Of a stretch of DNA of 64,000 nt, positions 3,717 through 23,673 are shown piece after piece. Position 1 is the stretch's first letter, and every line of letters begins with the position of its first letter. Origin of the DNA: Chryseobacterium sp. (GTDB lineage Bacteria; Bacteroidota; Bacteroidia; Flavobacteriales; Weeksellaceae); the NCBI RefSeq assembly GCF_031286615.1, contig NZ_JAITUA010000008.1. One strand, 5' to 3'. Under the pieces are notes generated by a model. The model made no database searches. It saw nothing but the letters and a program-made list of their open reading frames with translations, and had not been told where the DNA came from. The translations under genes were made by a program, and so were the position numbers.

Positions 3717-4731
3717 ACAGAAATTTATAGACAAATTTATGGCGGCATTCGTACTGCTGGCCATATTTAAGGTCATCGGAATCGTTGCCCAGTTATTCCA
3801 TGAAAGCTTCTGGAGCGTGGTCGGGACATTAGGAATCTTCTTAATTGTAGCCTTTATTATCCTTCTTGTGATCACTTCCTTAAAAGATAAAGAACAAAAC
3901 AACAGAAACACAACAGGAAGAAAAGGCAGTGGAAGCAGTAATTTCTATCTGGAAAACTCACTTTTTGACAGAATCCGGAGCAAATACGAAGAACTCGCCG
4001 AAAAATATATTGCGGAAAACGATTATAAAAAAGCAGCAAGAGTCTATATGAATTTGCTGCAGGATAATTACAGAGGTGCAAAAACACTTGAAAATGGCGG
4101 GTTTTATAATGAAGCAGCTGTAGTATACCTAAAGAAACTGAACAATAAATCTGATGCAGCACTTTGCTATGAAAAGGCAAAGCAATACAAAAAGGCAATT
4201 GACCTTTATAAAGAAATGGAGCAGAAAGAAAAAGTAGGTGATCTCTATAAAGAAATCAATGATCTTAAAAATGCCCACCATTACTATCAAATAGTTGCAG
4301 ATGATTATACAATCAATAATCAGATGGTGAAAGCTTCTTTAGTATACCGCAAAAAAATGGAAAAAGCTGAAGAGGCACAAAAAGTACTGTTGAAAGGATG
4401 GGAAGAAGACAGAGATGCTTTCAATTGTTTGAACAACTATTTTGCCAATATTTTTGATGTTAAAAAACTTGAATCTGAAATACAGCATTTATATCAGAAA
4501 ACTCCGGCTCACAAAAAGATCACTTTTCTGGAGGCTCTGAAATATGAATTTAAAAAAGGTCCGAAATTACATGCCATTACAAGAAATATAGCCTACGAAA
4601 TCATTGCTGAAAAAGTGGCCACCCGCTCAGAAATTGTCAACGAACTGAAATACTTTAATCCCGATGATGAAGTGATTCTGAAAGACATTTCCAGATTTAA
4701 AACCGGAAGGAATAAGATGTTTAGAAATTAA
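3703..4731 (+). CDS. two-TM protein with TPR-like helical repeats
   Basis: 342 aa. N-terminal hydrophobic helices, then repeated Y..A...Y/K..A helix pairs (YKKAARVYMNLL, YNEAAVVYLK, YKKAIDLYKE, AHHYYQIV). Overlaps the previous ORF by 14 nt. Confidence 0.55.
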   Translation: MMMNKQKFIDKFMAAFVLLAIFKVIGIVAQLFHESFWSVVGTLGIFLIVAFIILLVITSLKDKEQNNRNTTGRKGSGSSNFYLENSLFDRIRSKYEELAEKYIAENDYKKAARVYMNLLQDNYRGAKTLENGGFYNEAAVVYLKKLNNKSDAALCYEKAKQYKKAIDLYKEMEQKEKVGDLYKEINDLKNAHHYYQIVADDYTINNQMVKASLVYRKKMEKAEEAQKVLLKGWEEDRDAFNCLNNYFANIFDVKKLESEIQHLYQKTPAHKKITFLEALKYEFKKGPKLHAITRNIAYEIIAEKVATRSEIVNELKYFNPDDEVILKDISRFKTGRNKMFRN

Positions 4732-4802
4732 AAGATTGAAGAATTTAAAAATTAAAGAAAAACTTCTCTTTGAAAAAGGAATATAAATTTTATGTATGAT
4801 TT

Positions 4803-4955
4803 TTAAGGCGCAAGAAAATTGAAAATTTTCAGCAAGGTAGCTTATTAATTATGGCATTATTAAGAACAATATTATTATTGGTATTAAATTTTATCGGAGA
4901 TAAAATCCTCGCGCCTTAAAGTAGATTTTTTTAATATTATTTAGCGCCTTTGCGT
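4803..4955 (+). repeat. ~150-170 nt structured intergenic repeat, copy A
   Basis: Shares 'cagcaagg.a.cttat.aatta ... ggtattaaattttatc..agataaaatcct.gcgccttaa ... ttagcgcctttgcgt' with 40633-40803. Outer dyad is TTAAGGCGC...GCGCCTTAA. Confidence 0.7.
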
Positions 4956-5028: not shown

Positions 5029-5157
5029 ATGACAATACAAAGAGCACATATCAATGCAGAACTATTCGAAAGTCCTTCTAATAAAGGATTATTCGGATAT
5101 GATGAGATGATATGGAATGAGGCGAAATGTGCTGACTTTGGAAATTATTTACTGTAA
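5029..5157 (+). CDS. 42-aa small ORF (may instead be a small RNA)
   Basis: ATG to TAA gives MTIQRAHINAELFESPSNKGLFGYDEMIWNEAKCADFGNYLL. It sits between a -7 box and an intrinsic terminator. I recognise no homology. Confidence 0.3.
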   Translation: MTIQRAHINAELFESPSNKGLFGYDEMIWNEAKCADFGNYLL

Positions 5158-5187
5158 ACTTGTAAAAAATTAATCAAAATACAACAG

Positions 5188-5223
5188 AAACGCCTCGGAA
5201 AACCGAGGCGTTTTTTGTTTTTT
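5188..5223 (+). terminator. intrinsic terminator
   Basis: Hairpin AAACGCCTCGG-aaaa-CCGAGGCGTTT followed by a T-tract. Confidence 0.75.
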
Positions 5224-5544
5224 AGGTCAGAAATTATTTAGAATGAAAAAAAATAACCATAAACATGAAAATTTTTTAATAAACAATGAAACTTTAATAC
5301 GATAAAATAGAGTGATAAGCAACCCGGTGAGAGACAGTCATTTAGGTAATTAAGATATCTGCAAAATATTGCGGACAGAAATTCTCTACTCTAAAAACAA
5401 GGTGTAATCAATTGATTATCAGTAATTTAATTTGGAAATTTATTTGCGGATTCCAAAAATTCATATTTACTTTGCAACCGAAAATTGAAAGCAACAGGTT
5501 TTCAGGATTCAATTAAAAATAATTTAGAAACAAACAAAAATAAA

Positions 5545-5670
5545 ATGAAACAGTTACACAACATATTCAATCAATATTCAAGACTATTCGGACATGAGCC
5601 GGCAGGAGTTCTGTGTATTCTTGATAGTGAAATTGTGGATAAAAGGTGCTTATATACGTGGGTCAGCTAA
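5545..5670 (+). CDS. 41-aa small ORF (or ncRNA) just upstream of the tRNA array
   Basis: ATG at 5545 lies inside track ORF 5485-5670. A TTACTTTG -7-like box is at 5467-5474 and a terminator follows at 5695-5725. I recognise no homology. Confidence 0.25.
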   Translation: MKQLHNIFNQYSRLFGHEPAGVLCILDSEIVDKRCLYTWVS

Positions 5671-5694
5671 TGATCTCTTACGTTTAAAAATATG

Positions 5695-5725
5695 AAGCGC
5701 CTCCCGAAAAGAGGCGCTTTTTTTT
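5695..5725 (+). terminator. intrinsic terminator
   Basis: Hairpin AAGCGCCTC-ccgaaaa-GAGGCGCTT followed by T6. It ends 3 nt before the first tRNA. Confidence 0.75.
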
Positions 5726-5727
5726 AT

Positions 5728-5800
5728 GGTTTCTTTAGCTTATTTGGTAAAGCGCCGGTCTGTGGAACCGGAGAACAGGGTTCGATCCCCGGAGATACCC
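5728..5800 (+). tRNA. tRNA-His(GTG)-like, imperfect
   Basis: Anticodon arm CCGGT-CTGTGGA-ACCGG with GTG at 5762-5764. D stem GCTT/AAGC and T loop TTCGATC. The acceptor GGTTTCT/AGATACC has a T-T mismatch, the T stem has an A-G mismatch, and there is no clean G-1:C73. No CCA is encoded. Confidence 0.6.
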
Positions 5801-5809
5801 AAAATATAG

Positions 5810-5883
5810 AATCCCATAGCTCAATTGGTTAGAGCATCGACCTGATACGTCGAAGGTTGAAGGTTCGATTCCTTCTGGGATTA
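5810..5883 (+). tRNA. tRNA-Ile(GAT)
   Basis: Cloverleaf AATCCCA|TA|GCTC-AATTGGTTA-GAGC|A|TCGAC-CTGATAC-GTCGA|AGGTT|GAAGG-TTCGATT-CCTTC|TGGGATT|A. All stems pair perfectly. Confidence 0.9.
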
Positions 5884-5888
5884 CAAAT

Positions 5889-5944
5889 GTGAATTGTGAA
5901 ATTAAAAATTGACAAGCGAAACGAATTGATTATTGACGATTCAC
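5889..5944 (+). repeat. GTGAAT...ATTGACAAGCG...ATTCAC hairpin repeat, copy 1
   Basis: Shares 'aaaaattgacaagcg....g.attga..ttgac.attcac' with 31701-31787. The terminal dyad is GTGAAT/ATTCAC. Confidence 0.55.
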
Positions 5945-5955
5945 AAAATTAAAAC

Positions 5956-6029
5956 AATCTCATAGCTCAAATGGTTAGAGCACCGGTCTTTTAAACCGGG
6001 GGTTGAAAGTTCAAATCTTTCTGGGATTA
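5956..6029 (+). tRNA. tRNA-Lys(TTT)
   Basis: AATCTCA|TA|GCTC-AAATGGTTA-GAGC|A|CCGGT-CTTTTAA-ACCGG|GGGTT|GAAAG-TTCAAAT-CTTTC|TGGGATT|A. Confidence 0.9.
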
Positions 6030-6036
6030 CAAAAAC

Positions 6037-6110
6037 GGTTCCGTAGCTCAACCGGATAGAGCATGGGTTTTCTAAACCCAGGGTTAGAGGTTCAAGTCCT
6101 CTCGGAATCA
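6037..6110 (+). tRNA. tRNA-Arg(TCT)
   Basis: GGTTCCG|TA|GCTC-AACCGGATA-GAGC|A|TGGGT-TTTCTAA-ACCCA|GGGTT|AGAGG-TTCAAGT-CCTCT|CGGAATC|A. Confidence 0.9.
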
Positions 6111-6116
6111 CAAAAA

Positions 6117-6173
6117 GGTTCATGGAAAATTTCCAATCCGGCTGTCTCCCGGAAAAGAAACAGAAGTGAACCC
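6117..6173 (+). other. T-arm-less tRNA-Asp(GTC)-like mini-element (degenerate tRNA?)
   Basis: 7-bp acceptor-like helix GGTTCAT/GTGAACC. Small hairpin GGAA-aat-TTCC. Anticodon-like arm TCCGG-CTGTCTC-CCGGA with GTC at 6144-6146. An unstructured 12 nt replaces the T arm. Confidence 0.3.
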
Positions 6174-6178
6174 CAAAG

Positions 6179-6250
6179 CTGGAAAGATAACGGTGGTTGT
6201 TTACCCGTCTTGGACGCGGGAGGTCGCAAGTTCGAATCTTGCTTTCCAGA
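6179..6250 (+). tRNA. tRNA-Pro(TGG)
   Basis: Acceptor CTGGAAA/TTTCCAG, with C1:G72 and A73 as is typical for bacterial tRNA-Pro. Anticodon arm CCCGT-CTTGGAC-GCGGG. T arm GCAAG-TTCGAAT-CTTGC. The D stem is weak (3 bp). Confidence 0.8.
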
Positions 6251-6256
6251 CAATTT

Positions 6257-6328
6257 GTTCCATTAGCATAGAGGTAAGTGCATTCGGCTTTCTACCGAAC
6301 GACAAGGGTTCGATCCCCTTATGGAATA
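6257..6328 (+). tRNA. tRNA-Glu(TTC), copy 1 (U37 atypical)
   Basis: GTTCCAT|TA|GCAT-AGAGGTAA-GTGC|A|TTCGG-CTTTCTA-CCGAA|CGAC|AAGGG-TTCGATC-CCCTT|ATGGAAT|A. Position 37 is T rather than a purine. Confidence 0.75.
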
Positions 6329-6333
6329 CAAAT

Positions 6334-6407
6334 GATTTCGTAGCTCAAGTGGTTAGAGTGTCGGTCTGATACACCGAAGGTTGAAGGTTCGAGTCCTTCC
6401 GGAATTA
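6334..6407 (+). tRNA. tRNA-Ile(GAT), copy 2
   Basis: GATTTCG|TA|GCTC-AAGTGGTTA-GAGT|G|TCGGT-CTGATAC-ACCGA|AGGTT|GAAGG-TTCGAGT-CCTTC|CGGAATT|A. Confidence 0.85.
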
Positions 6408-6411
6408 CAAT

Positions 6412-6483
6412 GATTTTGTAGCTCAATGGTAGAGCGCCGGTCTGTTAAACCGGAAGTTGAAAGTTCGAATCTTTCCGGAATCG
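6412..6483 (+). tRNA. tRNA-Asn(GTT)
   Basis: GATTTTG|TA|GCTC-AATGGTA-GAGC|G|CCGGT-CTGTTAA-ACCGG|AAGTT|GAAAG-TTCGAAT-CTTTC|CGGAATC|G. Confidence 0.88.
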
Positions 6484-6509
6484 CAGGTAACTAATTGTTA
6501 ATTGTTTCA

Positions 6510-6586
6510 GGAGAAAGTAAAAGTTTGTCGAGAGCAGAAGATCTTTACGCCAAACACGAAAATACAGACAGACTTTTCTTCTCTCC
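6510..6586 (+). repeat. tRNA-array hairpin element, copy 1
   Basis: Lower stem ggagaaagtaaaagTTTGTC / GACAGActtttcttctctcc. Conserved apical sequence GAGAGCAGAAGATCTTTAcgCCAAAC. Confidence 0.8.
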
Positions 6587-6630
6587 CGATTAATTAAAAG
6601 TTAAAGAATATCATTTATAAATTTTTAGGT

Positions 6631-6695
6631 AAAAATAAAGTTTGTTGAGCGCAGAAGATCTTTAATCAAACAATTTTAGACAGACTTTATTTTTT
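6631..6695 (+). repeat. tRNA-array hairpin element, copy 2
   Basis: Lower stem aaaaataaagTTTGT / ACAGACtttattttt. Apical sequence TGAGCGCAGAAGATCTTTAatCAAAC. Confidence 0.8.
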
Positions 6696-6701
6696 TAATC
6701 T

Positions 6702-6784
6702 GATGGTTCGCCGAAGTGGAAGAGTCGGGGGCGGTCTGCAAAACCGTTGTGTAAACTGAGTGGGTTTGAATCCCATAGCCATCT
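6702..6784 (+). tRNA. class-II-bodied tRNA with a Cys anticodon (GCA) and U73
   Basis: Acceptor GATGGTT/AGCCATC plus discriminator T. Tyr-like D arm CCGA-AGTGGAAGAG-TCGG. Anticodon arm GCGGT-CTGCAAA-ACCGT with GCA at 6738-6740. 12-nt extra region. T arm GTGGG-TTTGAAT-CCCAT. Confidence 0.6.
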
Positions 6785-6865
6785 CAATGTAAAAACTATA
6801 GGAGATATAAGAATCTTTTATCAATGATCTTTTATCATCTATAGCAAAGAATATCCTTTATTAAT

Positions 6866-6935
6866 AAAAGAAAAAGGCTGTCGAGCGCAGAAGATCTTTA
6901 ACCAAACATTCAATAAAGACAGACCTTTTCTTTTT
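6866..6935 (+). repeat. tRNA-array hairpin element, copy 3
   Basis: Lower stem aaaagaaaaaGGCTGTC / GACAGACCttttcttttt. Apical sequence GAGCGCAGAAGATCTTTAacCAAAC. Confidence 0.8.
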
Positions 6936-6988
6936 AAAAGGAAAAAATGAGGAATTACTTATTCATGACTAATTGCTCATAAAAATCC

Positions 6989-7072
6989 GGAAGTACGCCG
7001 AAGTTGGAGAGTCGGGGCAGACTGTAAATCTGTTGCTTCATTGCTGAGTAGGTTCGAATCCTACTACTTCCA
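6989..7072 (+). tRNA. tRNA-Tyr(GTA), class II
   Basis: GGAAGTA|CG|CCGA-AGTTGGAGAG-TCGG|G|GCAGA-CTGTAAA-TCTGT|long variable arm (TTCA-ttgc-TGAG)|GTAGG-TTCGAAT-CCTAC|TACTTCC|A. Confidence 0.88.
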
Positions 7073-7077
7073 CTCAA

Positions 7078-7148
7078 CCACTGATAATGTAATGGCAGCA
7101 TGCAGGAAATGTACTCTTGTTGTTTAGGTTCGATTCCTGGTCAGTGGG
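7078..7148 (+). tRNA. tRNA-like gene with ambiguous anticodon (TGT/Thr if the loop is 7 nt, but A33)
   Basis: CCACTGA|TA|ATGT-AATGGCA-GCAT|G|CAGGA-AATGTAC-TCTTG|TTGT|TTAGG-TTCGATT-CCTGG|TCAGTGG|G. Position 33 is A and several pairs are G-T. Confidence 0.45.
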
Positions 7149-7153
7149 TTAAC

Positions 7154-7225
7154 GCTCTATTCGTCTAACGGTGAGGACGCCTGCCTTTCGAGCAGAAAAC
7201 AAGGGTTCGATTCCCTTATAGAGTA
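7154..7225 (+). tRNA. tRNA-Glu(TTC), copy 2
   Basis: GCTCTAT|TC|GTCT-AACGGTGA-GGAC|G|CCTGC-CTTTCGA-GCAGA|AAAC|AAGGG-TTCGATT-CCCTT|ATAGAGT|A. The TTCGTCTA..GGAC D arm is typical of bacterial tRNA-Glu. Confidence 0.82.
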
Positions 7226-7325
7226 CTGGATGTGAATAGCTGGTCAATATTGAATTGATATAATACCATGAAAGTTCAGATTTTTTTTTAAAATTGGCCA
7301 GTTACCATTCACACAAAAAATAAAG

Positions 7326-7395
7326 AAAAGAGAAAAAGGACTGTCAGGAGCAGAAGATCTTTAGTCAATAAAAATAGACAGCCTTTTACTTTTTT
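7326..7395 (+). repeat. tRNA-array hairpin element, copy 4
   Basis: Lower stem aaaagagaaaaaGGACTGTC / GACAGCCttttactttt. Apical sequence AGGAGCAGAAGATCTTTAgtCAATA. Confidence 0.8.
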
Positions 7396-7417
7396 AAAAC
7401 AAAATACATTAGGAAAT

Positions 7418-7492
7418 GAGAAAGGTTTGTCAAGCGCAGAAGATCTTTACAAATACTAGCAGGCATAATTTATAAACAGACAGAGCTTTCTC
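7418..7492 (+). repeat. tRNA-array hairpin element, copy 5
   Basis: Lower stem gagaaaGGTTTGTC / GACAGAGCtttctc. Apical sequence AAGCGCAGAAGATCTTTAcaaatac, with a longer loop than the other copies. Confidence 0.8.
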
Positions 7493-7588
7493 AAACCTAG
7501 ACATCATCTGAGTAATAAGCAATGAATGATGAGTAATTAAACAGCATAAATTACTTATTACAAATTGCTCATTATTGAGAAAAACGCT

Positions 7589-7664
7589 GCGGGAATGGTG
7601 GAATGGCAGACACTCTTGATTTAGGATCAAGCTTTTGGGGGTTCGAGTCCCCCTTCCCGTACCA
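7589..7664 (+). tRNA. tRNA-Leu(TAG) with a short (5-nt) variable region and encoded CCA
   Basis: Acceptor GCGGGAA/TTCCCGT plus A73, followed by CCA at 7662-7664. Leu-like D arm GGTGGAATGGCAGAC. Anticodon arm CTTGA-TTTAGGA-TCAAG. Variable region is only CTTTT. T arm GGGGG-TTCGAGT-CCCCC. Confidence 0.7.
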
Positions 7665-7751
7665 AAATATTAGTAATAAATAATGAGCAATGAGTAATGA
7701 TGCTAACAGTAGATATTTCTCATTACCAATTACTTATTGCTTATAAAATCT

Positions 7752-7824
7752 GGAAGAGTGGTGTAGAAGGTCTGCACGTTAGTCTGAAAAACTAAAGGTA
7801 CAGGTTCAATTCCTGTCTGTTCCA
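7752..7824 (+). tRNA. tRNA-Phe(GAA)
   Basis: Acceptor GGAAGAG/CTGTTCC (one G-G mismatch) plus A73. D stem GTGT/GCAC with a 9-nt loop. Anticodon arm TTAGT-CTGAAAA-ACTAA. T arm ACAGG-TTCAATT-CCTGT. Confidence 0.75.
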
Positions 7825-7884
7825 CAAAATATGAATGATAAATGATTGCTGGGCATTTCATCATTTATCAATTATAATTAAAAC

Positions 7885-7956
7885 TGATTCATAGTGTAAT
7901 AGGCAGCACACAAGATTTTGATTCTTGGAGTTTAGGTTCGGGTCCTAATGAATTAA
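7885..7956 (+). tRNA. tRNA-Gln(TTG)
   Basis: TGATTCA|TA|GTGT-AATAGGCA-GCAC|A|CAAGA-TTTTGAT-TCTTG|GAGT|TTAGG-TTCGGGT-CCTAA|TGAATTA|A. The U1:A72 pair is typical of bacterial tRNA-Gln. Confidence 0.82.
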
Positions 7957-7962
7957 CAATTT

Positions 7963-8033
7963 ACTCTGATAGTGTAATGGAAGCATCTCAGTCTCCAAAA
8001 CTGATGGTACTGGTTCGAGTCCGGTTCAGAGTG
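7963..8033 (+). tRNA. tRNA-Trp(CCA)
   Basis: ACTCTGA|TA|GTGT-AATGGAA-GCAT|C|TCAGT-CTCCAAA-ACTGA|TGGT|ACTGG-TTCGAGT-CCGGT|TCAGAGT|G. A1:U72 with G73 is typical of bacterial tRNA-Trp. Confidence 0.88.
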
Positions 8034-8117
8034 CAAAAGATGAAACCAGTGATGGGTTATCATTTATCATTTATCAATTATCAACAATCATTTATCAATT
8101 TAAAATATGTAGAAAAA

Positions 8118-8603
8118 ATGGAAACGCAACAACAAACATGGCAGAATATGAATGGAAAATTTTTCCAAAACTCTATCACACAGCTGGTAGAAGAAGCCAT
8201 TATCCGCGAACAGGCAAACGGACACCGTCTGAAAGTATGTGTGGGATCAGACTCTCATGTATATGGAGATGCCATCAATTATGCTACGGCAGTAGTATTT
8301 ATTCGTGAGGGAAAAGGAGCGTTTACCTTTATTAGAAAAGAAAGAGAAATACAGAGTATCAGTATCAAAGAGCGAATGCTGAATGAGGTTAACAAATCCG
8401 TAGAAATTGCATACGCTATCTGCTCTGTGTTGGATACTTATGGTGTAGAAATGGAGGTACACGCAGACATTAATACCGACCCCGATTTTAAATCCAATGT
8501 CGCACTTAAAGATGCAATGGGATACATTCTGGGAATGGGATATGTGTTTAAAGCAAAACCTTTTGCCTTCGCAAGTTCCAATTGTGCTGATATGATGGTT
8601 TAA
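8118..8603 (+). CDS. YkuK/DUF458-type RNase H-like fold protein
   Basis: Start trimmed to the ATG at 8118, because the track ORF start at 7977 overlaps tRNA-Trp. 'KVCVGSDSH..YATAVVFIREGKGAF..KERMLNEV..EVHADIN..KP.AFASS.AD' matches my recollection of the YkuK family. Confidence 0.6.
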   Translation: METQQQTWQNMNGKFFQNSITQLVEEAIIREQANGHRLKVCVGSDSHVYGDAINYATAVVFIREGKGAFTFIRKEREIQSISIKERMLNEVNKSVEIAYAICSVLDTYGVEMEVHADINTDPDFKSNVALKDAMGYILGMGYVFKAKPFAFASSNCADMMV

Positions 8604-8619
8604 TCTTTTAATCAAAAAA

Positions 8620-9432
8620 ATGAAAACAGTTTTAATTATTAATGGAGAAAAATATTGGAAGGATTATTTTGCAGGATTTGATGTAGTTCAGAAGAAAGTT
8701 CAGACATCAGAGTTTATGATAAAAGATTCTTCATTGTATGTAGTTGATGCAGATGGAGTCTGCAAGCCGGATATTATTTTCTGGCGGCTGGGAGCAATTA
8801 ATCCCGACCCCAAATATAGAAATATCCTAGAGTTGATTGACTATTCAGGAGTAGTTTGTATTAATTCTGCTTCCACATTATTAATGGGATATGAAAGGCT
8901 TACGATGCTGAATATCCTTAAAAAACTAGGGTTACCGGTTATCAACTTTAATGTAGCGACAAATACTCAGTATTTGAAAAATATGGAAATGAAATTTCCT
9001 TTTGTAGTTAAAGTTGGAAATCACCATGGTGGATACGGTAAAAGTCTGGTTTCAACAGAAGAGCAATGGGAAGAACTGAAAGACTTATTGTTTATTCATA
9101 GGAATTACGTGACTATCGAAAAGTTTATTGATTATAAATATGATATTCGCTATCTGGCTATAAATGATAAAGTTTGGGCAATGAAAAGAAGAGGGAAATA
9201 TTGGAAAGCCAATTCTTTAACTCAAGAATACCAAATTATAAATCCGGAAGATGAATGGATTGAAAAAGTAAAACTTTTACAGCAATATATCAAGGCTGAT
9301 ATTGTAGCCATTGATGTTTTGGAAACAGAAAATGGAGAAAAAATAATTTTAGAATACAATGATATTCCTGGTCTTTCAGGGTTTCCTGAAGATGTAAGGC
9401 TGGAATTATCAATGACAGTGAAAAGTAAATAA
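8620..9432 (+). CDS. ATP-grasp enzyme (RimK-like)
   Basis: 'FPFVVKVGNHHGGYGKS', 'RYLAINDKVWAMKRRG..WKANS' and 'VAIDVLETENGEKIILEYNDIPGLSG' are ATP-grasp core motifs. Confidence 0.72.
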   Translation: MKTVLIINGEKYWKDYFAGFDVVQKKVQTSEFMIKDSSLYVVDADGVCKPDIIFWRLGAINPDPKYRNILELIDYSGVVCINSASTLLMGYERLTMLNILKKLGLPVINFNVATNTQYLKNMEMKFPFVVKVGNHHGGYGKSLVSTEEQWEELKDLLFIHRNYVTIEKFIDYKYDIRYLAINDKVWAMKRRGKYWKANSLTQEYQIINPEDEWIEKVKLLQQYIKADIVAIDVLETENGEKIILEYNDIPGLSGFPEDVRLELSMTVKSK

Positions 9433-9454
9433 AAGAACCTTAAAATCAAAGAAT

Positions 9455-10231
9455 ATGTATTTTTTAGTTCAGGCTAATGTGTATTTAGATCCGGATCACT
9501 ATAAAATTTTTGATGCGCTGGAAGAATTGAATATCGATTACGATGTAATTAATATTCCTCCAGCAGCTGAGAAAATAGATTTTAATATAGACAGAAAAGA
9601 TGTTTTTGTCTATGGATCAGTAACCATTGCAAGATTGGCAAAACAAAATACAGAATGGTTTCCTGGTTCTTTTTACGGAGGCAATCATCTCTATGAAGTA
9701 TATTCTAAATATTATGGTGAAAACCTTCTTAATTATAATGTTTCTGTTCATAAAATCTCTGAGCAGCTGACTTGGGAAAAAGGTGAACTTAAATTCATTA
9801 AACCCTACAGTGAAGCAAAGATTTTTACAGGAAAAGCTTTTACAGAAATAGAATGGAAAGATTTTGTGTTTGAGGCACTGGAAAATCAAACCAATAGAAT
9901 TACGAAAGATTCTTTGGTACAGGTTTCCAAGGCAAAACGAACGATGAAAGAAGCAAGACTTTGGATTGTGGGGGGACAGATCATCGATGGAGGTTATTAT
10001 AAATTCAATGATGATGCTCCTTTTGAAGAAAAAGTTTCACAGGAAGGATTGGATTTTGCCAATAAAATGATTCAGCTTTTTAATCTTGAAGAAGCTTTTG
10101 TAATGGATATTTGTTTAACAGATGAAGGTTGGAAAATAGTTGAAATAAATTGTATCAACAGTTCTGGATTTTATCCAAACACCAATGTAAAAAGTGTTAT
10201 AAAAGCATTGAGCATTTATTTTTCAAATTAA
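9455..10231 (+). CDS. divergent ATP-grasp protein (DUF4343/R2K-like)
   Basis: 'FIKPYSEAKIFTGKAF', 'ARLWIVGGQIIDGGYY' and 'AFVMDICLTDEGWKIVEINCINSSGFY' give an ATP-grasp C-terminal signature. Confidence 0.55.
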   Translation: MYFLVQANVYLDPDHYKIFDALEELNIDYDVINIPPAAEKIDFNIDRKDVFVYGSVTIARLAKQNTEWFPGSFYGGNHLYEVYSKYYGENLLNYNVSVHKISEQLTWEKGELKFIKPYSEAKIFTGKAFTEIEWKDFVFEALENQTNRITKDSLVQVSKAKRTMKEARLWIVGGQIIDGGYYKFNDDAPFEEKVSQEGLDFANKMIQLFNLEEAFVMDICLTDEGWKIVEINCINSSGFYPNTNVKSVIKALSIYFSN

Positions 10232-10243
10232 ATTAACAGAACA

Positions 10244-10615
10244 ATGGAAAAAACAAAAAGATTATTATTTCTGGATGATATAAGATATCCTGTTGAGGCG
10301 TATCACTATACCAAACAGGAGATTTTCCTCAGAAATGACTGGCATATTGTGCGGAATTACGAGCAGTTTGTCAACAGGATTTTGGAAAAAGGACTTCCGG
10401 AAATGATTTCTTTTGACCATGACCTTGCCGATGAGCATTATCTGAAGCCGGATTCTCAGGAATTTGTTGAGAAAACAGGATACGACTGCGCCAAATGGCT
10501 GGTAGAATATTGTATGGACAATTATCTGGATCTTCCAAAATTCTATAGTCACTCCATGAATCCGGTAGGAAAGGAAAATATTCTTTCCCTTTTAAAAAAC
10601 TTTAAAAAACTGTAA
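10244..10615 (+). CDS. cyclic-phosphate-processing receiver (cREC) domain protein
   Basis: 123 aa. 'LFLDDIRYP', 'WHIVRNYEQF', 'ISFDHDL', 'TGYDCAKWLV' and 'HSMNPVGKENI' are the family hallmarks as I recall them. Confidence 0.65.
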   Translation: MEKTKRLLFLDDIRYPVEAYHYTKQEIFLRNDWHIVRNYEQFVNRILEKGLPEMISFDHDLADEHYLKPDSQEFVEKTGYDCAKWLVEYCMDNYLDLPKFYSHSMNPVGKENILSLLKNFKKL

Positions 10616-11178
10616 TGGATATTTTTAGATATATTCAGGATATAAAAACACATCTGAAACTCACATTTGATGAGGTAGACGGATGGTTTGAAAAAGATAA
10701 AGAAACGTTGAATCATCAGCCTTCAAACGGAGGCTGGACGGTTCAGCAGATTTTAGAACACATTTATCTTACAAATTTTTACTTGCTGATCCTTATTGAA
10801 AAAGGCGCCAAAAAAGCAATGAAGAATTCTTTGAATCTTGACCTTGAATCTGAAATAAAAAACTACAGTTTTAATAAGAAAAACTTTGACAGGGTAGGTG
10901 AACATGGTGCTTTTGAATGGATAAGACCAGAACATATGGAACCGAAAGGAGAATTAGGTCCGGATAAAATCAGAAGTTTAATGAGCCAGCAGTATCTACT
11001 GTGTTTACATTATCTGGAAGTGATGAAAAATGGTGAAGGACTCTTGTATAAGACGACAATGACAGTGAATGAGCTGGGGAAAATCAATGTATACGAATAT
11101 ATTTATTTTCTGTCACTTCATGCTCAGAGACATGTTACCCAGATGAAGAAAAACGAATCAGAAACGATTAAAAACTAA
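10615..11178 (+). CDS. DinB-family four-helix-bundle metalloprotein
   Basis: 'GGWTVQQILEHIYLTNFY' and the C-terminal 'LHAQRHVTQM' His-containing helices. The start overlaps the previous stop (TAATG). Confidence 0.65.
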   Translation: MDIFRYIQDIKTHLKLTFDEVDGWFEKDKETLNHQPSNGGWTVQQILEHIYLTNFYLLILIEKGAKKAMKNSLNLDLESEIKNYSFNKKNFDRVGEHGAFEWIRPEHMEPKGELGPDKIRSLMSQQYLLCLHYLEVMKNGEGLLYKTTMTVNELGKINVYEYIYFLSLHAQRHVTQMKKNESETIKN

Positions 11179-11184
11179 GACAAA

Positions 11185-12201
11185 ATGATTTTTAAAACAT
11201 ATAACTCTATAGAAAATGCTTATCAGACCCGCGTGATCGAACAGATCAGGATGCAGGGTTTTGGGGATGAGGTTTTCATAGTACAGGAAAAAGTTCACGG
11301 AGCTAATTTCTCTTTCTTTACCGACGGAAAGGAAATTAAAATCGCGAAGAGAACTGCTTTCATCGAAAAAGATGAAAAATTTTTCAATGCACATCAGATC
11401 TTGGAACGCTACAGAAAAAATGTATTAGAAGTGTTTCAGAAAGTGAAAACCATCCATCCGGATGTAGAAACTGTAGTGATCTACGGCGAATTGTTCGGTG
11501 GCGGTTACAAACATAAAGAAGTAGAACCTGTAAAAGATGCAGTGAAGGTACAGAAAGGCATTGAGTATGCCCCTCACAACGAATTTTACGCTTTCGATAT
11601 CAAATTGAATGGGATTACCTATTTGGATACAGAAGTTGTCAATCAGATTTTTGAGGAGACAGGATTTTTCTATGCTAAAATCTTGTTCCAGGGAACTCTA
11701 GAAGATGCTTTGAAATTCCCCAATGTTTTCAATTCAAAAATTCCGGCCTGGCTGGGATTGCCTGAAATGGAGAACAATATGTGTGAAGGTACCATCGTAA
11801 AAACTTTGAAAACCAAATATTTTGGAAACGGTGCAAGAATTATTCTTAAAAATAAGAATGAAAAATGGGTCGAAAAATCCAAAATGGTTAAAAAAGAGGC
11901 TAAAATTGTTCAGAAACAGGTTCATTTCAGTGAAAAAGCTCAGGAAATCTGGGAGGAAATCCAAAAATATGCTACTGTCAACAGGCTGAATAATGTTATC
12001 AGCAAAATTGGTGAATTCGAACCTAAAATGATAGGCAGGGTGATTGGCCTTTTTGCTCAGGATATTTTAGAAGACTTCGAGAAAGACTTCCCGGCAGCTT
12101 TTACAGCAATTGAAAAAGAAGAGCAGAAAAGGATCAACAAAAAGTTGAATTCTTTAGTAATTGATTTTATAAAAGAAGAGTTGATGACTCTTAAAGTATA
12201 G
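11185..12201 (+). CDS. RNA ligase, Rnl2 (T4 RnlB-like) family
   Basis: 338 aa, similar in size to T4 Rnl2. Motif I 'EKVHGANFSF' (Lys36), 'IYGELFGG', motif IV-like 'CEGTIVK', motif V 'IILKNKNEKW'. Confidence 0.8.
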   Translation: MIFKTYNSIENAYQTRVIEQIRMQGFGDEVFIVQEKVHGANFSFFTDGKEIKIAKRTAFIEKDEKFFNAHQILERYRKNVLEVFQKVKTIHPDVETVVIYGELFGGGYKHKEVEPVKDAVKVQKGIEYAPHNEFYAFDIKLNGITYLDTEVVNQIFEETGFFYAKILFQGTLEDALKFPNVFNSKIPAWLGLPEMENNMCEGTIVKTLKTKYFGNGARIILKNKNEKWVEKSKMVKKEAKIVQKQVHFSEKAQEIWEEIQKYATVNRLNNVISKIGEFEPKMIGRVIGLFAQDILEDFEKDFPAAFTAIEKEEQKRINKKLNSLVIDFIKEELMTLKV

Positions 12202-12229
12202 TTTCGGTATTTTTTACCGAAACTTTTTT
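12201..12229 (+). terminator. intrinsic terminator after the RNA ligase gene
   Basis: Hairpin GTTTCGGTA-ttttt-TACCGAAAC followed by T6. Confidence 0.7.
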
Positions 12230-12366
12230 GTATATAAACCTAACCATAAATGCTGCGTGAGTTTAAGGACCTGATTTTCATTATGCAGTAAGTTTGTCAT
12301 TCCGTAGGAATCTCAACCGTTAAAAGTGAAAATAGGCTTTCTTTTATGGTTTAAAAAAGAAAAAAT

Positions 12367-13311
12367 ATGTTACAGGCAGAAATAAAAAGTCTTTTAAAAG
12401 AAGACATTAGTATATTAATTAAAATTCCTAATTCAGGAAAGCACTATTTGTGTGATTGTGGAGAAGGAAGTTTATTAACTGTGAAAGAAGTACAGTCTAT
12501 ATCAGCTATATTCATAAGCCATACCCATATTGATCACTTTTCAAATTTCGATGGGATTTTCAGACATCAGATCGGAAGCGGAGAAAAAGTGATGATTTGT
12601 GGACCAAAAAATATTCATCAACAGGTTGAAGCAAGGTTAAAATCTTACACATGGAATCTGATTGATGAAAAAGCAATTGAATATGAAATTCGTGAAATTG
12701 TTTCACAAAATGAAATTAATATTTATACCCTTCGTCCGCCACATTGGAATCTGGAGTTGGTAAAGACTCAGAACTTCCTGTTTGAAGACGAATATGTCAA
12801 CGTTGATTTTGCTATTCTGGATCATAAAACAGATTCTATCGCTTATTTATTTAAAGAAAAAGATTCCGTCACCTTTAATGAAAATGCTTCCGGTTTTAAA
12901 AAAGGAAAGTGGATCAGCGAGCTGAAAACCGCTTTTGAAAATAATGATGGTGATAAAGAAATCAAAATTGAAGAAACTGTTTACAAAGCAGCTGATCTGT
13001 TTCACCTATTGACCCGTAATGCGGGCTATAAACTTGGCGTAATCATGGATCATGCGGCAGATGAAAACAATTACGAAAAAATCAGAACCGTATTTGAAGG
13101 TGCAGATATCGTGTATATCGAAAGCTTTTATAAAGATACAGATCAGGAATTTGCAAAGATCAATTACCACAGTTTTGCTTCTGCATCAGGAAAAATTATG
13201 AATGAATGTCAGGTGAAAGAAGCCATTCCAATTCACTTTTCAAGAAGATATACGGAAAGCGATCAGGAAGAAATTGAAACTGCTTTTTATAAAGCGTTTC
13301 GTAAGAATTAA
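12367..13311 (+). CDS. MBL-fold metallo-hydrolase (RNase Z/BN-like)
   Basis: 'FISHTHIDHFSNFDG' (HxHxDH) together with later D/H motifs. Confidence 0.7.
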   Translation: MLQAEIKSLLKEDISILIKIPNSGKHYLCDCGEGSLLTVKEVQSISAIFISHTHIDHFSNFDGIFRHQIGSGEKVMICGPKNIHQQVEARLKSYTWNLIDEKAIEYEIREIVSQNEINIYTLRPPHWNLELVKTQNFLFEDEYVNVDFAILDHKTDSIAYLFKEKDSVTFNENASGFKKGKWISELKTAFENNDGDKEIKIEETVYKAADLFHLLTRNAGYKLGVIMDHAADENNYEKIRTVFEGADIVYIESFYKDTDQEFAKINYHSFASASGKIMNECQVKEAIPIHFSRRYTESDQEEIETAFYKAFRKN

Positions 13312-13367
13312 TTAAAAATATTTATTAAACAAAACTATAGCATTCACAGAATAGTAATGTATGTACT

Positions 13368-13442
13368 TGTCATTCTGACAAAGGAAGAATCTCTTTAAGG
13401 AGAAAGATTCTTCATTCCACTTTGTTTCTTTCAGAATGACAG
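13368..13442. repeat. GTCATTCTGA/GAAGAATCTC palindromic intergenic element
   Basis: Nested dyad ttGTCATTCTGAcaaaGGAAGAATCTct...agAGATTCTTC...TCAGAATGACag. Related partial copies are at about 12290-12325 and 41875-41955. Confidence 0.6.
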
Positions 13443-13476
13443 AGAGAATGTTGTAGTTAAAAAACAATTTAAAAAA

Positions 13477-14040
13477 ATGAAACCCAATATATTTTTTACT
13501 GCTGATCATCATTTTGGTCACGAGAATATTATAAAATTTTCAGAAAGACCTTTTGAATCTCTGGACCATATGAATGAAGAACTCATTAAAAGATGGAATG
13601 AGAAAATTCAACCCGGTGACACGGTCTACCATTTAGGAGATATGAGTCTGGGAAAACCGGATTTTACAAAAGAGATTTTAGACAGATTAAATGGTAATAT
13701 CCATTTGATAAAGGGCAACCACGAAGGCGCAGCTTTAGCTTATCCCAAGCGCTTTGCTTCCATCAGAGATTATCACGAACTGAAAATTGATGAAGCAGAT
13801 AACAGCAACAGAAAACAGAAAATCATTCTTTTCCACTACGCCATGCGTACCTGGAATGGCTCACACCGAGGGGTCTGGCAGTTATACGGACATTCACATG
13901 GAACATTACCGGATGATGAAATGGCACTGAGTTTTGACGTAGGAGTAGACTGCCACAATTTTTATCCGGTTTCCTACGAGGAAGTCAAAGAAATTATGAA
14001 AAGGAAAAAATGGACACCACCATTTGGTCCAAGAAATTAA
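13477..14040 (+). CDS. calcineurin-like metallophosphoesterase
   Basis: 'FFTADHHFGH', 'YHLGDMSLG', 'IKGNHE' and 'GHSHG' are the canonical MPE motifs. Confidence 0.8.
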   Translation: MKPNIFFTADHHFGHENIIKFSERPFESLDHMNEELIKRWNEKIQPGDTVYHLGDMSLGKPDFTKEILDRLNGNIHLIKGNHEGAALAYPKRFASIRDYHELKIDEADNSNRKQKIILFHYAMRTWNGSHRGVWQLYGHSHGTLPDDEMALSFDVGVDCHNFYPVSYEEVKEIMKRKKWTPPFGPRN

Positions 14041-14155
14041 TGATGAGTAATAAGTAATGATTTGATGGAAGGAAAAATGGGAACGATATTTCAATGAGTA
14101 TTCAACAGCTTTCATCATACATTTTACTTTTTTACATCGTACATTTTATAATAAC

Positions 14156-14698: not shown

Positions 14699-14809
14699 AA
14701 TAATTAGGCTGGAAGACTGAAGCTGGAGGCTGGAAGTAAATCAGACGCTGTAAAAACTTCCATCTTCCTGCATCCATCTTCTATCCTTTAACAATTAAAT
14801 TTTAAACAA

Positions 14810-15364: not shown

Positions 15365-15407
15365 AACCATTAAAATTTATATATTTAGATATCTTGAATA
15401 TTAATAA

Positions 15408-16442
15408 ATGACTGAAAAATATAATATCCTGGAGCACATGAGAATGCGTCCTGGAATGTATGTTGGTTTTCTGAACCATTTTGGCTATAATGAATTAATA
15501 AGCTACTTCATTAAAGATTTTATCAGAGCTGACATCTATGATATTACTTTCACCCTGAAAAAAGATAATAGACTGGTTATGAAATGGACTAGTTATAAAA
15601 AAACGCTTTTTAATACAGAAATCATAAAAAAGATTAATCAGTATCAACAAGAACCATTTTATTTATCATTGGCTGGTATTATTGCACTGACAGAGTATTC
15701 TACGATTGAGATTAATGGTGTACCTATACTACAATCAGAAAAAGGAAACTTTGAAGTTTTGGACAGCATTAATTATATTAATGAAGAAGAGACCTGCAAT
15801 TGGACGATTGATTTCATTCCTGATCAAGATATTTTTAAAGGTTTGATATTGAGTTACCAAATTTTGAATGATTTGTTCAGAAGGTTTTCCTTTTTGGATT
15901 CAAATATGAAAATAAAAAGCATTGATGAATCTGAAGATGAACAACAGATCAATATTTTTCATTATCCAAATGGTTTAGCAGAGATTATAAATTATGAAGT
16001 GGAAAAGAGTTTGCTGTATGATTTCTATTTTTTTACATTGAATTTTCGAAAAAAAACAGAATATTCATATTCAGTAGCATTTGCCTTTGCAGATAATCAG
16101 ATCTTTAAACCTAAAATCAAGATATATGCAAATTATCAAGAAACCTTTCTGGGAGGATCTTTACTGGATGGAATTATGCAAGGATTCAAGATGTCTTTGA
16201 AAGAAGAAGCTGCAAAGAGAAATATGAAATTAAATATAAGTACAACAAGACTTAAAAAATACCTGTTGCTTTATGCTTCTGTACAAGGAGAACTTACATT
16301 TTTGGGTTCAACAAGATGGAAGCTTGGAACTCTGAAAGTGCAGACAGAAATTAAGAACTTTATGTATGAAGAGCTAAAACTTTATTTTGCCAATAATGAA
16401 GATAAGGTAATTCATATCCTACAAATTTTACGGGATGAATAG
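15408..16442 (+). CDS. GyrB/ParE N-terminal-like protein with a degenerate GHKL ATP site
   Basis: 'LEHMRMRPGMYVG' matches the GyrB N-terminal signature. The expected E..DN..DE N-box reads 'YFIKDFIRAD'. At 344 aa it has no Toprim or tail. Confidence 0.5.
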   Translation: MTEKYNILEHMRMRPGMYVGFLNHFGYNELISYFIKDFIRADIYDITFTLKKDNRLVMKWTSYKKTLFNTEIIKKINQYQQEPFYLSLAGIIALTEYSTIEINGVPILQSEKGNFEVLDSINYINEEETCNWTIDFIPDQDIFKGLILSYQILNDLFRRFSFLDSNMKIKSIDESEDEQQINIFHYPNGLAEIINYEVEKSLLYDFYFFTLNFRKKTEYSYSVAFAFADNQIFKPKIKIYANYQETFLGGSLLDGIMQGFKMSLKEEAAKRNMKLNISTTRLKKYLLLYASVQGELTFLGSTRWKLGTLKVQTEIKNFMYEELKLYFANNEDKVIHILQILRDE

Positions 16443-21335: not shown

Positions 21336-21337
21336 AT

Positions 21338-23577: not shown

Positions 23578-23613
23578 TACGCAAAAAGGTTGCGCAATAC
23601 TGTTTTTACTTTG
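23578..23613 (+). promoter_or_regulatory. P(rsr): 19-mer TACGCAAAAAGGTTGCGCA, N9, then the -7-like box TTACTTTG
   Basis: The same 19-mer/N9/8-mer architecture occurs at 26791 and 27011. It lies about 60 nt upstream of the ATG at 23674. Confidence 0.55.
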
Positions 23614-23673
23614 CATCAGAAATCAGAGAGGAAGTATCAATTCTTCCCAATGTTTAACAAAAAAACAGTAACC

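Follow-up and report, generated by a model that had tools for sequence, protein, structure and literature searches.

Accessory arrays of transfer RNA (tRNA) genes are known, and their purpose is understood in one case only, that of Anabaena PCC 7120, where translational stress induces both rtcB and an otherwise silent long tRNA array, and the array aids survival (Santamaria-Gomez et al. 2021, PMC8421152). In large phages, tRNAs, the ligases Rnl1, Rnl2 and RtcB, cyclic-phosphate processing receiver (cREC) proteins and Ro/TROVE proteins have been read as counters to tRNA cleavage (Iyer et al. 2021, PMC7824862). Here we analyze an array of 16 tRNA genes that lies directly upstream of an RNA-repair cluster with an Rnl2-family RNA ligase, on 64,000 nucleotides (nt) of DNA from Chryseobacterium sp. 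(assembly GCF_031286615.1, contig NZ_JAITUA010000008.1; this whole stretch is called the window). From its context and by analogy with the systems above, we consider it rather probable that the accessory array and the repair cluster together serve as a back-up that restores tRNAs after damage. Compared with known accessory arrays, this one is new in being fixed in the genus, fused to an Rnl2-type cluster, preceded by a candidate translation-sensing attenuator and supplied with conserved non-standard tRNAs.

The locus resembles the long arrays (L-arrays) of other bacteria (PMC8421152) in having many same-strand tRNA genes in one potential operon without periodicity, in being apparently supernumerary, offering isodecoder redundancy and not new codon coverage, and in the enrichment of RNA-processing genes nearby. 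Three differences stand out. First, the Anabaena array is co-regulated with the RNA ligase RtcB, whereas the Chryseobacterium array is physically fused to an Rnl2-type cluster. Second, L-arrays are sporadic, horizontally spread and carried on plasmids or mobile elements with up to 43 genes, whereas here 4–17 genes occupy one chromosomal locus in 78 of 80 species; the patchy distribution of L-arrays was not found, GC content is even and no plasmid or phage genes lie nearby. Third, the Anabaena array has direct repeats in its promoter, whereas the Chryseobacterium array has a leader open reading frame (ORF) and a terminator in front. The phage sets of tRNA and repair genes (Pnkp, Rnl1 and Rnl2 of T4, and those of jumbo phages) share with the locus Rnl2, cREC, a calcineurin-like phosphoesterase and an R2K ATP-grasp protein, many tRNAs with AT-rich stems, Ro60/TROVE, and a proposed logic of replacing and repairing cut tRNAs. 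Unlike those sets, the Chryseobacterium module is chromosomal and vertically inherited, no polynucleotide kinase was detected in it, and no phage with a related array was found.

tRNA genes were called with ARAGORN across the whole window, and likewise in the Rnl2 loci described below, and were scored against Rfam family RF00005 (gathering threshold 29 bits). ARAGORN returned 16 genes at 5728-8034, all on the plus strand, separated by gaps of 3-362 nt and filling 2.3 kb, with no further tRNA gene in the window. The first-pass annotation, made from the letters of the sequence, had given the same list and coordinates; the one gene it had left ambiguous, at 7078, is called Thr-TGT by ARAGORN. The genes are as follows, with Rfam scores in bits where the RF00005 threshold was reached.

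5728..5800, plus strand: tRNA-His(GTG), called by ARAGORN, 47.3 bits; an 8-bp acceptor stem with G-1:C73 is possible on hand reading
5810..5884, plus strand: tRNA-Ile(GAT) copy 1, 75 bits; in the Ile/Lys/Arg-ACG/CAT paralogue group
5956..6030, plus strand: tRNA-Lys(TTT), 71.1 bits; shares its acceptor stem with Ile copy 1
6037..6111, plus strand: tRNA-Arg(TCT), 67.1 bits
6179..6251, plus strand: tRNA-Pro(TGG), 46.9 bits; C1-G72 and A37, loop CTTGGAC in 69/73 copies
6257..6329, plus strand: tRNA-Glu(TTC) family 1, 60.8 bits; pyrimidine-37, loop CTTTCTA in 35 copies
6334..6408, plus strand: tRNA-Ile(GAT) copy 2, 66.5 bits
6412..6484, plus strand: tRNA-Asn(GTT), 73.6 bits; G73
6702..6785, plus strand: tRNA-Cys(GCA) of class II build, called by ARAGORN; 70 near-invariant copies
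6989..7073, plus strand: tRNA-Tyr(GTA), class II; A73, loop CTGTAAA in 68/68 copies
7078..7148, plus strand: tRNA-like 'Thr(TGT)', called by ARAGORN; loop AATGTAC, C1-G72
7154..7226, plus strand: tRNA-Glu(TTC) family 2, 61.9 bits
7589..7664, plus strand: tRNA-Leu(TAG), 58.5 bits; the sole gene of the 16 with an encoded CCA
7752..7825, plus strand: tRNA-Phe(GAA), 64.1 bits
7885..7957, plus strand: tRNA-Gln(TTG), 55.7 bits; U1-A72 and A73, CTG variants in 6 species
7963..8034, plus strand: tRNA-Trp(CCA), 59 bits; A1-U72 and G73

The gathering score was reached by 13 of the 16 genes (46.9-75 bits); Cys 6702 and Tyr 6989 gave only sub-threshold tRNA-Sec matches in Rfam, and gene 7078 had no Rfam match at E<=1. 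Acceptor stems were described as AT-rich in the first-pass annotation and do hold only 1-4 G-C pairs of 7 across the array. Encoded CCA is absent from 15 genes, most of which show N73-C74 followed by A. The array is not periodic; apart from an intergenic element, and a Cys unit that is tripled in two species, nothing in it repeats. Of the 16 genes, 14 have the canonical anticodon loop of 7 nt, with U33 and purine-37, the exceptions being 7078 (A33) and Glu 6257 (T37). Anticodon loops are near-invariant within each family, in up to 77 species, and the stems of orthologues carry compensatory changes, for example in the 7078, Cys and Leu families, which argues against pseudogene decay and supports the view that the array members are real tRNA genes under selection. 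Most members are thus not pseudogenes, with 13 above the Rfam threshold and the other three conserved across species.

Conservation was assessed in one genome per species, scanned with Rnl2, which gave 80 Chryseobacterium species at 82-96% Rnl2 identity. Of these, 78 have a plus-strand array 1.5-6 kb upstream of Rnl2, bounded by the RNA-repair cluster on one side and by a conserved small ORF with its terminator on the other; in the other two the contigs are cut. The position of the array at the same locus therefore indicates that it is genus-wide and vertically inherited. Its content is variable. Among 77 complete arrays, size ranges from 4 to 17 genes (median 14), and Glu-TTC is the only anticodon found in all; Trp-CCA is absent from 25, His-GTG from 10 and the CAT gene from 62, and Gly, Ala and Val tRNAs occur in none. 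Even at one position the gene can differ, the place of Ile copy 2 between Pro/Glu and Asn being taken by a CAT or a second Leu-TAG gene in other species. A species without a given array copy must therefore encode that tRNA elsewhere. By published annotation the tRNA total is 78 in C. cucumeris GSE06, with 15 in its array (locus L021), and 77 in C. phosphatilyticum ISE14, with 14 in its array (locus L064), leaving about 63 other tRNAs apiece. Because content varies and these two related species carry 77-78 tRNAs in total, we infer, with considerable confidence, that the array copies are supernumerary.

Recent transfer from a phage was rejected, as a blastn search of 50,697 phage records returned only single-tRNA matches of at most 83% identity, and strain-specific or recent phage acquisition is likewise at odds with synteny at the same locus in 78 of 80 species. 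An initial description of these tRNAs as phage-like or accessory therefore holds for the accessory half, given the content of 4-17 genes and the totals of 77-78, and fails for recent phage derivation. The first-pass annotation had set against its own reading the case of sole, syntenically conserved housekeeping copies; of that pair, synteny was found. The DNA itself is Chryseobacterium chromosome, neither phage nor plasmid. The Rnl2 protein, whose gene lies 3 kb downstream of the array, has a 100% identical Chryseobacterium counterpart at NCBI, and wherever a source is named for its 120 best relatives, it is Chryseobacterium. Elsewhere in the window are chromosomal genes for malate:quinone oxidoreductase, a sulfate permease, an EF-G paralogue, ter proteins and a glycoside hydrolase; GC is about 0.36 and even, the array region matching the rest of the window, and no phage structural or replication genes or plasmid genes were among the annotated neighbours of the array.

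The genes that follow the array, at 8118-16442, are all on the plus strand. Their presence at each locus was scored by tblastn over the 80 loci; presence of Rnl2 in 80/80 is by construction, as Rnl2 was the query.

8118..8603, plus strand: YkuK-like RNase H-fold protein (PF04308, Pfam E=1e-30); 79/80 loci, median 95% identity; start chosen by hand
8620-9432, plus strand: RimK-like ATP-grasp protein (Pfam); 13/80 loci, variable accessory
9455-10231, plus strand: R2K_3 ATP-grasp protein (Pfam); 32/80 loci, variable accessory
10244..10615, plus strand: cREC domain protein (PF20274, E=4e-22); 73/80 loci
10615..11178, plus strand: DinB_2 family protein (Pfam); 42/80 loci, variable accessory
11185..12201, plus strand: Rnl2-family ATP-dependent RNA ligase (Pfam RNA_ligase and T4_Rnl2_C); 80/80 loci
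12367..13311, plus strand: RNase Z-like metallo-beta-lactamase protein (NF002558, E=3.9e-65, below cut-off); 41/80 loci, accessory
13477..14040, plus strand: calcineurin-like metallophosphoesterase, candidate 3'-end healing enzyme; 69/80 loci
14156-14698 and 14810-15364, plus strand: two RNase T-family 3'-5' exonucleases; each 79/80 loci
15408..16442, plus strand: GyrB-like fragment protein; 9/80 loci, rare accessory

From the leader to the exonucleases, the order is conserved on one strand across the 80 loci. Judged by presence, the core of the cluster is the YkuK-like protein, cREC, Rnl2, the phosphoesterase and the two RNase T-like exonucleases. The ligase passes the equivalog cut-off of NCBIfam TIGR02307 (206 bits against 197) and shares about 34% identity with RnlB ligases from T4-like phages. 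By family membership, the cREC protein and the calcineurin-like phosphoesterase are the candidates for 3'-end healing, cREC having a proposed role in cyclic-phosphate processing (PMC7824862). The terminator scan returned no terminator-like site between the Trp gene and the first repair gene. This and the absence of any exact plus-strand TAnnTTTG box inside the array fit one long transcript, and the array is probably co-transcribed with the repair genes.

The same association was found beyond the genus. A wider search used a profile from more distant Rnl2 proteins against metagenomes and IMG/VR, with 80 loci from each. Beyond Chryseobacterium-type contigs, Rnl2 loci showed 42-60% identity in metagenomes and 25-43% in IMG/VR, and at least 3 tRNAs lay within 10 kb of a distant Rnl2 in 19/80 metagenome loci and 9/80 phage loci. 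In three contigs (L097, L102 and L108) an array is directly upstream of Rnl2. One of them, L097, shares the unusual Pro, Glu and short-arm Leu tRNAs with the window at 76-82% identity. The short-arm Leu(TAG) occurs both there (1356-1430) and in L108 (3050-3127), where Rnl2 is 57% and 47% identical, respectively; the unusual Leu build thus accompanies Rnl2-linked arrays outside Chryseobacterium as well, on these metagenome contigs. On IMG/VR contigs L197, L222 and L230, Rnl2 is inside or beside tRNA arrays. Judged by gene neighbourhood, Rnl2 beside tRNA arrays is a recurrent module in cells and phages.

What lies in front of the array is equally conserved. The 300 nt before tRNA-His were aligned from 67 loci and found highly conserved across these species; helix pairing was counted in 60 species. 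The elements of this region are as follows.

5444..5475, plus strand: candidate Bacteroidetes-type promoter, TTTG-N21-TACTTTG, near-invariant in the 67 species; putative in function
5476..5544, plus strand: conserved 5' leader, its first ~40 nt (CAACCGAAAATTGAAAGCAACAGGTTTTCAGGATTCAA) near-invariant, with a 5' hairpin predicted by RNAfold
5545..5670, plus strand: 41-codon leader ORF (MKQLHNIFNQYSRLFGHEPAGVLCILDSEIVDKRCLYTWVS) in which each of the 20 amino acids occurs
5644..5702, plus strand: predicted antiterminator, the outer helix pairing 5644-5655 with 5690-5702 in the RNAfold minimum-energy fold of the nascent leader
5694..5727, plus strand: intrinsic terminator from the terminator scan, GAAGCGCCTC / GAGGCGCTTT followed by a T-run

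The Bacteroidetes -7 box has the consensus TAnnTTTG, from which the candidate promoter is one base off; no exact plus-strand TAnnTTTG occurs between 5017 and 8810, hence none inside the array. The leader ORF was detected in 75/80 loci by tblastn, and an open frame initiated by ATGAAACA is present in 62/67 loci, with length variants always in multiples of 3. A random 41-mer would hold all 20 amino acids with P ~0.004. The ORF matched no Pfam or NCBIfam family, and no Rfam match at E<=1 was found at 5400-5727, where a T-box or other known leader RNA was thus rejected. The terminator ends 2-3 nt before tRNA-His and has 98.3% of cells paired, with compensatory G-C to A-U changes in 10 species. In the predicted antiterminator, whose outer helix has 97% of cells paired, the 5' strand lies within the K-R-C-L-Y codons and the 3' strand is the 5' arm of the terminator; the helix encloses a hairpin (5656-5683) with the stop codon UAA (5668-5670) in its loop. 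Within the ORF, the 16-nt AAAAGGTGCTTATATA, which includes this 5' strand and is complementary to the 5' arm of the terminator, is close to invariant at every codon position, with one substitution in 60 species, and the flanking codons vary. The distant contig L097 has the same layout of ORF, antiterminator, stop-codon hairpin and terminator in different sequence; its ORF has 47 codons and 19 kinds of amino acid, AGGCGC pairs with GCGCCU in the terminator, and the stop codon falls in the inner hairpin. The leader of L108 folds differently, in a way not tied to the ORF, and was not used as support.

Leader-peptide transcription attenuators are known from the enterobacterial trp, his, leu and pheA operons. 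As in these, an intrinsic terminator stands between a short ORF and the genes that follow closely, a stretch of RNA in or beside the ORF could pair with the terminator's 5' arm, and a ribosome that has reached the stop codon would cover this stretch; unlike in these, the genes downstream are for tRNAs and repair proteins. To our knowledge, no attenuator of this kind has been described in Bacteroidota. From the predicted folds, the leader ORF and terminator may form a leader-peptide attenuator of the array, which we hold as a tentative possibility.

A second small ORF of 42 aa (5029-5157), present in 76/80 loci, lies just upstream of the leader unit, with its own TATCTTTG promoter box and a strong terminator at 5186-5215. 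The promoter and 5' region of L097 resemble this 42-aa ORF unit rather than the leader promoter.

A conserved hairpin element recurs between the tRNA genes.

6512..6700, plus strand: hairpin element copies 1-2, with the core GCAGAAGATCTTT at 6534 and 6651
6865..6940, plus strand: hairpin element copy 3, core at 6887
7328..7490, plus strand: hairpin element copies 4-5, cores at 7350 and 7436

These five copies of the 13-mer GCAGAAGATCTTT lie in the Asn-Cys, Cys-Tyr and Glu-Leu gaps, and the window has no other exact copy. Across the loci the exact 13-mer occurs 178 times in 74/81, always on the plus strand and within arrays save one copy. A long hairpin, AAAAGGTTTGTC ... GACAGGCTTTTTCTT, carries the core in the 5' portion of its loop and has a few compensatory changes. 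The element had no Rfam match, and an element-specific 21-mer had no match in IMG/VR. Several identities were rejected: a genome-wide miniature transposon, as the element is array-restricted with no further exact copy in the window; a canonical promoter, as it lacks a plus-strand TAnnTTTG; and a coding sequence, as some copies contain an in-frame stop codon. Processing of the transcript, partial termination and protein binding are all possible roles for it.

The context of the array, with a repair operon directly downstream and a leader ORF and terminator directly upstream, likely gives its meaning. In the back-up scheme that we favour, the ordinary tRNA pool would be damaged, for example by anticodon nucleases that belong to phage defence or to the toxins of competitors; the array would provide substitutes for the tRNAs of 14 amino acids, keeping translation running; and the enzymes of the cluster would trim, heal and re-ligate broken tRNAs, with the RNase Z-like protein and the two ATP-grasp proteins as optional extras. 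The array itself would have arisen by tandem duplication, gene loss and change of anticodons together with identity bases. If the leader is an attenuator, its translation to the stop codon would let the ribosome mask the antiterminator strand, so that the terminator would form and the array would be off; stalled or failed translation would let the antiterminator form and transcription enter the array and repair genes. Taking this further is doubtful and more speculative still: the leader would be a sensor of translation capacity that samples all 20 amino acids and, when tRNA cleavage or depletion or ribosome damage prevents its translation, switches on structurally unusual reserve tRNAs together with repair enzymes, the unusual builds (class II Cys, short-arm Leu, position-37 variants) would possibly be chargeable but poor substrates for nucleases, and the hairpin element would be a further control or processing signal.

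Several observations weigh against this scheme. First, Pfam and NCBIfam detected no polynucleotide kinase domain among the proteins at 8100-16442, so that the heal-and-seal pathway may be incomplete, although its 5'-OH kinase step could fall to an enzyme encoded elsewhere in the genome or to one that these models miss. Second, none of ten locus proteins had a PADLOC match, on which basis a known defence system was ruled out. Third, redundancy is read from variable content and from published counts for two related species. Fourth, the antiterminator lacks two-sided covariation in 60 species because its 5' strand is invariant. Fifth, unlike the enterobacterial leaders, this one spreads over all 20 amino acids, with no run of regulatory codons and no upstream (1:2) pause hairpin found, and its third-position entropy sum of 15.2 is only slightly higher than the 11.6 and 11.8 of the other positions; it might merely encode a small protein. 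Lastly, five T-tailed hairpin elements within the array could block read-through or mark separate transcription units.

The alternative that survives best takes up the last of these points. It dispenses with the attenuator, the ORF being an independent small protein with its own terminator and the array being reached by leaky read-through or internal promoters, perhaps in the hairpin elements. We regard this as a serious possibility, short of probable: it accommodates the missing codon run and covariation, the five conserved intergenic elements, a frame kept open through in-frame indels, and L108, which has no comparable layout. It sits less well with a terminator 2-3 nt before tRNA-His in 60 species, which leaves no room for a promoter, with a near-invariant AAAAGGTGCTTATATA complementary to the terminator, and with the repetition of the layout in L097.

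The tRNAs themselves bear on the remaining alternatives, and on how the array evolved. The first-pass annotation had proposed paralogy from shared strings, all of which are in the sequence: AATC[C/T]CATAGCTCAA..TGGTTAGAGCA and the 3' end CTGGGATTA in Ile 5810 and Lys 5956, the arm CCGGTCT-NNN-[AG]AACCGG in His, Lys and Asn, and GATTT[CT]GTAGCTCAA with CCGGAAT in Ile 6334 and Asn 6412. With anticodons masked, identity is 81% for Ile5810/Lys5956, 81% for Lys/Asn, 82% for Ile6334/Asn and 73% for Cys/Tyr, against a median of 58% over all pairs and 69% for the two Glu-TTC genes. When 1081 tRNAs from the window and the 80 loci were clustered by single linkage with the anticodon removed, Ile-GAT, Lys-TTT, Arg-ACG and CAT formed one cluster at 88%, which Arg-TCT and Asn entered at 80%; paralogy is thereby upheld. 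Outside the anticodon arm, genes of the same array reach 98% identity for GAT/CAT and 91% for Ile/Lys, with a median of 83% for Ile/Arg-ACG and 71% for the two Glu-TTC genes; sharing an anticodon therefore does not make two genes the closest pair, as some genes that differ in it are more alike. Because of its Ile body, the CAT gene may encode not a Met tRNA but an Ile tRNA of the lysidine type.

The changes extend to identity bases. Arg-ACG has the acceptor and T arms of Ile-GAT, from which it is set apart by its anticodon loop and by an A in place of T at position 20; A20 is an identity base of arginyl-tRNA synthetase (ArgRS) in E. coli. In the neighbouring Cys and Tyr genes, GCA is paired with U73 and GTA with A73. 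Within families, anticodons vary by single bases (TGT/AGT/TAT, TTG/CTG, TTC/TTT). These patterns support an evolution of the array by duplication and anticodon change, with putative changes of charging specificity. The earlier suggestion of duplication with anticodon remoulding is thus sustained in substance, with one correction: an apparent switch from Ile to Arg-ACG in place at the second position was rejected, because both genes stand side by side in L073, L080 and L093, and differential loss of tandem paralogues therefore fits better. A Trp to Leu-CAA switch in L031 was also discarded, the gene being damaged by a 2-nt deletion.

Remoulding of tRNA genes, by alloacceptor or anticodon shifts, is known from organelle and some nuclear genomes. 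A yeast example is the mitochondrial tRNA-Thr(UAG), which derives from tRNA-His (cited in PMC7609411). Comparable pairs in the array are Ile-GAT/Arg-ACG (A20)/Lys-TTT/CAT, Tyr-GTA/Cys-GCA (U73), TGT/TAT, TTG/CTG and TTC/TTT; unlike in organelles and nuclei, the changes here would have occurred inside a redundant bacterial array, where selection on single genes would be relaxed.

Some builds are non-standard. The Cys-GCA gene combines a Tyr-like D arm, a 13-nt variable arm, U73 and the T-loop TTTGAAT, folds with an acceptor stem of 7 bp and a T stem of 5 bp, and shows a compensatory T-A to C-G change in its variable arm among 70 copies. The closest described forms are selC* tRNA-Cys and allo-tRNAs, which have 8/4 or 9/3 acceptor/T-stem branches and are found in anaerobes beside selB or cysS paralogues (Mukai et al. 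2017; PMC7609411). The Chryseobacterium gene shares with selC* tRNA-Cys the Cys identity set (U73, GCA) and a long variable arm, and differs in its 7/5 branch and its Tyr-like D arm and variable arm. The Leu-TAG gene (Leu-TAA in other species) has a Leu-type D arm and A73, yet a short variable loop, with compensatory stem changes in 75 copies. The 'Thr' family has an invariant AATGTAC loop without U33, a discriminator that varies among G, C, A and T, and anticodons TGT, AGT and TAT across species; RNAalifold found 4 compensatory pairs in its cloverleaf in 27 species. In Pro, position 37 is A, against G37 in the tRNA-Pro of E. coli, and it is a pyrimidine in Asp and in one of the Glu families. 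A missing U33, a pyrimidine at 37 and A37 in Pro are all features expected to impair decoding. Comparison of orthologues thus indicates that the class II Cys, the short-arm Leu, the U33-less 'Thr' and the position-37 variants are conserved across species. Elements read by hand (His G-1:C73, Cys U73 and GCA, Asn and Trp G73, Trp A1-U72, Pro C1-G72, Arg A20) presumably fit the cognate synthetases.

The window's own Cys-GCA has five Gs at the junction of D stem and anticodon stem (6726-6730) where all 69 other copies have four; the fifth is an insertion specific to this strain, or else a sequencing error. The class II Cys-GCA gene is tripled in two species (L070, 7229-7811; L078, 6157-6981), and in L070 the copies, 250 nt apart and each with an intergenic element, reveal that a tRNA-plus-element unit was recently duplicated in tandem.

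That the RNAs act outside translation, as decoys or sponges for anticodon nucleases or as substrates or cofactors of the neighbouring ligase, ATP-grasp peptide ligases and exonucleases, is in our view unlikely for the array as a whole. The U33-less 'Thr' with its variable discriminator and the position-37 variants in Glu, Asp and Pro would suit such a role. So would a set that includes Lys, Glu, Gln, His, Asn, Tyr and Arg, as tRNAs for these amino acids are targets of described anticodon nucleases. A sponge role has also been proposed for the Anabaena array (PMC8421152). However, the anticodon loops of most members are canonical and their synthetase identity elements are retained, and identity bases have changed together with anticodons (A20 with ACG, U73 with GCA), which makes sense only if charging matters. 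A subset such as the 7078 gene may nevertheless have a role of this kind.

Less likely again is a cryptic relic of a phage or mobile element, in which an array and Rnl2 cassette captured once now has little function or expression. Large phages typically have Rnl2, cREC, R2K ATP-grasp and tRNA clusters (PMC7824862), Rnl2 is inside or beside arrays on the three IMG/VR contigs, array content falls to 4-9 genes in some species, and long arrays of other bacteria are reported to be poorly transcribed (PMC8421152). Set against this, phage records match single tRNAs only, at 83% identity at most, the hairpin element is absent from IMG/VR, GC is even, and the strong conservation of tRNAs, leader, terminator and repair proteins across the genus points to ongoing selection; an old phage origin is in any case compatible with the back-up scheme. 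An ordinary housekeeping tRNA operon, holding the sole copies of some isoacceptors and placed beside RNA-processing genes by chance, would agree with the synteny, the conserved anticodon loops and identity elements that we take to fit cognate synthetases, and is very improbable in view of the content of 4-17 genes, the arrays without the single-isoacceptor tRNAs Trp-CCA or His-GTG, the lack of Gly, Ala and Val, the ~63 other tRNAs annotated in two genomes, the non-standard builds and acceptor stems with 1-4 G-C pairs.

A genus-fixed array joined to ligase-based repair would give accessory tRNA arrays a concrete and testable purpose, the replacement and repair of damaged tRNAs. A real attenuator would be a simple means for a cell to gauge how well it can translate and to answer with more tRNA. 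Changes of tRNA identity can also be studied in the array as in a natural experiment, through its Ile/Arg/Lys/CAT and Tyr/Cys groups, short-arm Leu and U33-less tRNA, with relevance for tRNA engineering and for how tRNAs evade anticodon nucleases.

Further observations concern the surroundings of the array. About 830 nt upstream of tRNA-His, ARAGORN called a minus-strand tRNA-like structure of 72-73 nt in 7 species (L026 3681-3753, L039 3736-3807, L048, L053, L054, L057 and L059), with differing 'anticodons' (GCT, ATA, GAT); the matching place in the window (~4800-4925) has a long inverted repeat, TTAAGGCGCAAG...CTCGCGCCTTAA, and no ARAGORN call. The surroundings are rich in stress and conflict genes (74-4731, 18639-22681, 31843-34029 on the minus strand, and 34526-41847). 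Upstream of the array, at 74-4731, are bpX1 and bpX3 proteins of a MoxR-vWA-beta-propeller ternary system, and the other intervals hold a DUF6493/DUF7824/DUF7825 protein with a SWIM partner, an EF-G paralogue and a TelA/TerC tellurite-resistance cluster. A Ro60/TROVE gene lies 7 kb beyond the repair cluster. This Ro60/TROVE-vWA gene (23590-25191, plus strand) is convergent with a Flavo-1 RNA at 25250-25337 on the minus strand (Rfam, 59.9 bits, above threshold), 59 nt downstream of it. Bacterial Ro60 genes usually have a Y RNA adjacent to them. The literature searched contained no paper connecting Flavo-1 with Ro60 or Y RNA; from its position, Flavo-1 may be the Y RNA of Flavobacteriia.

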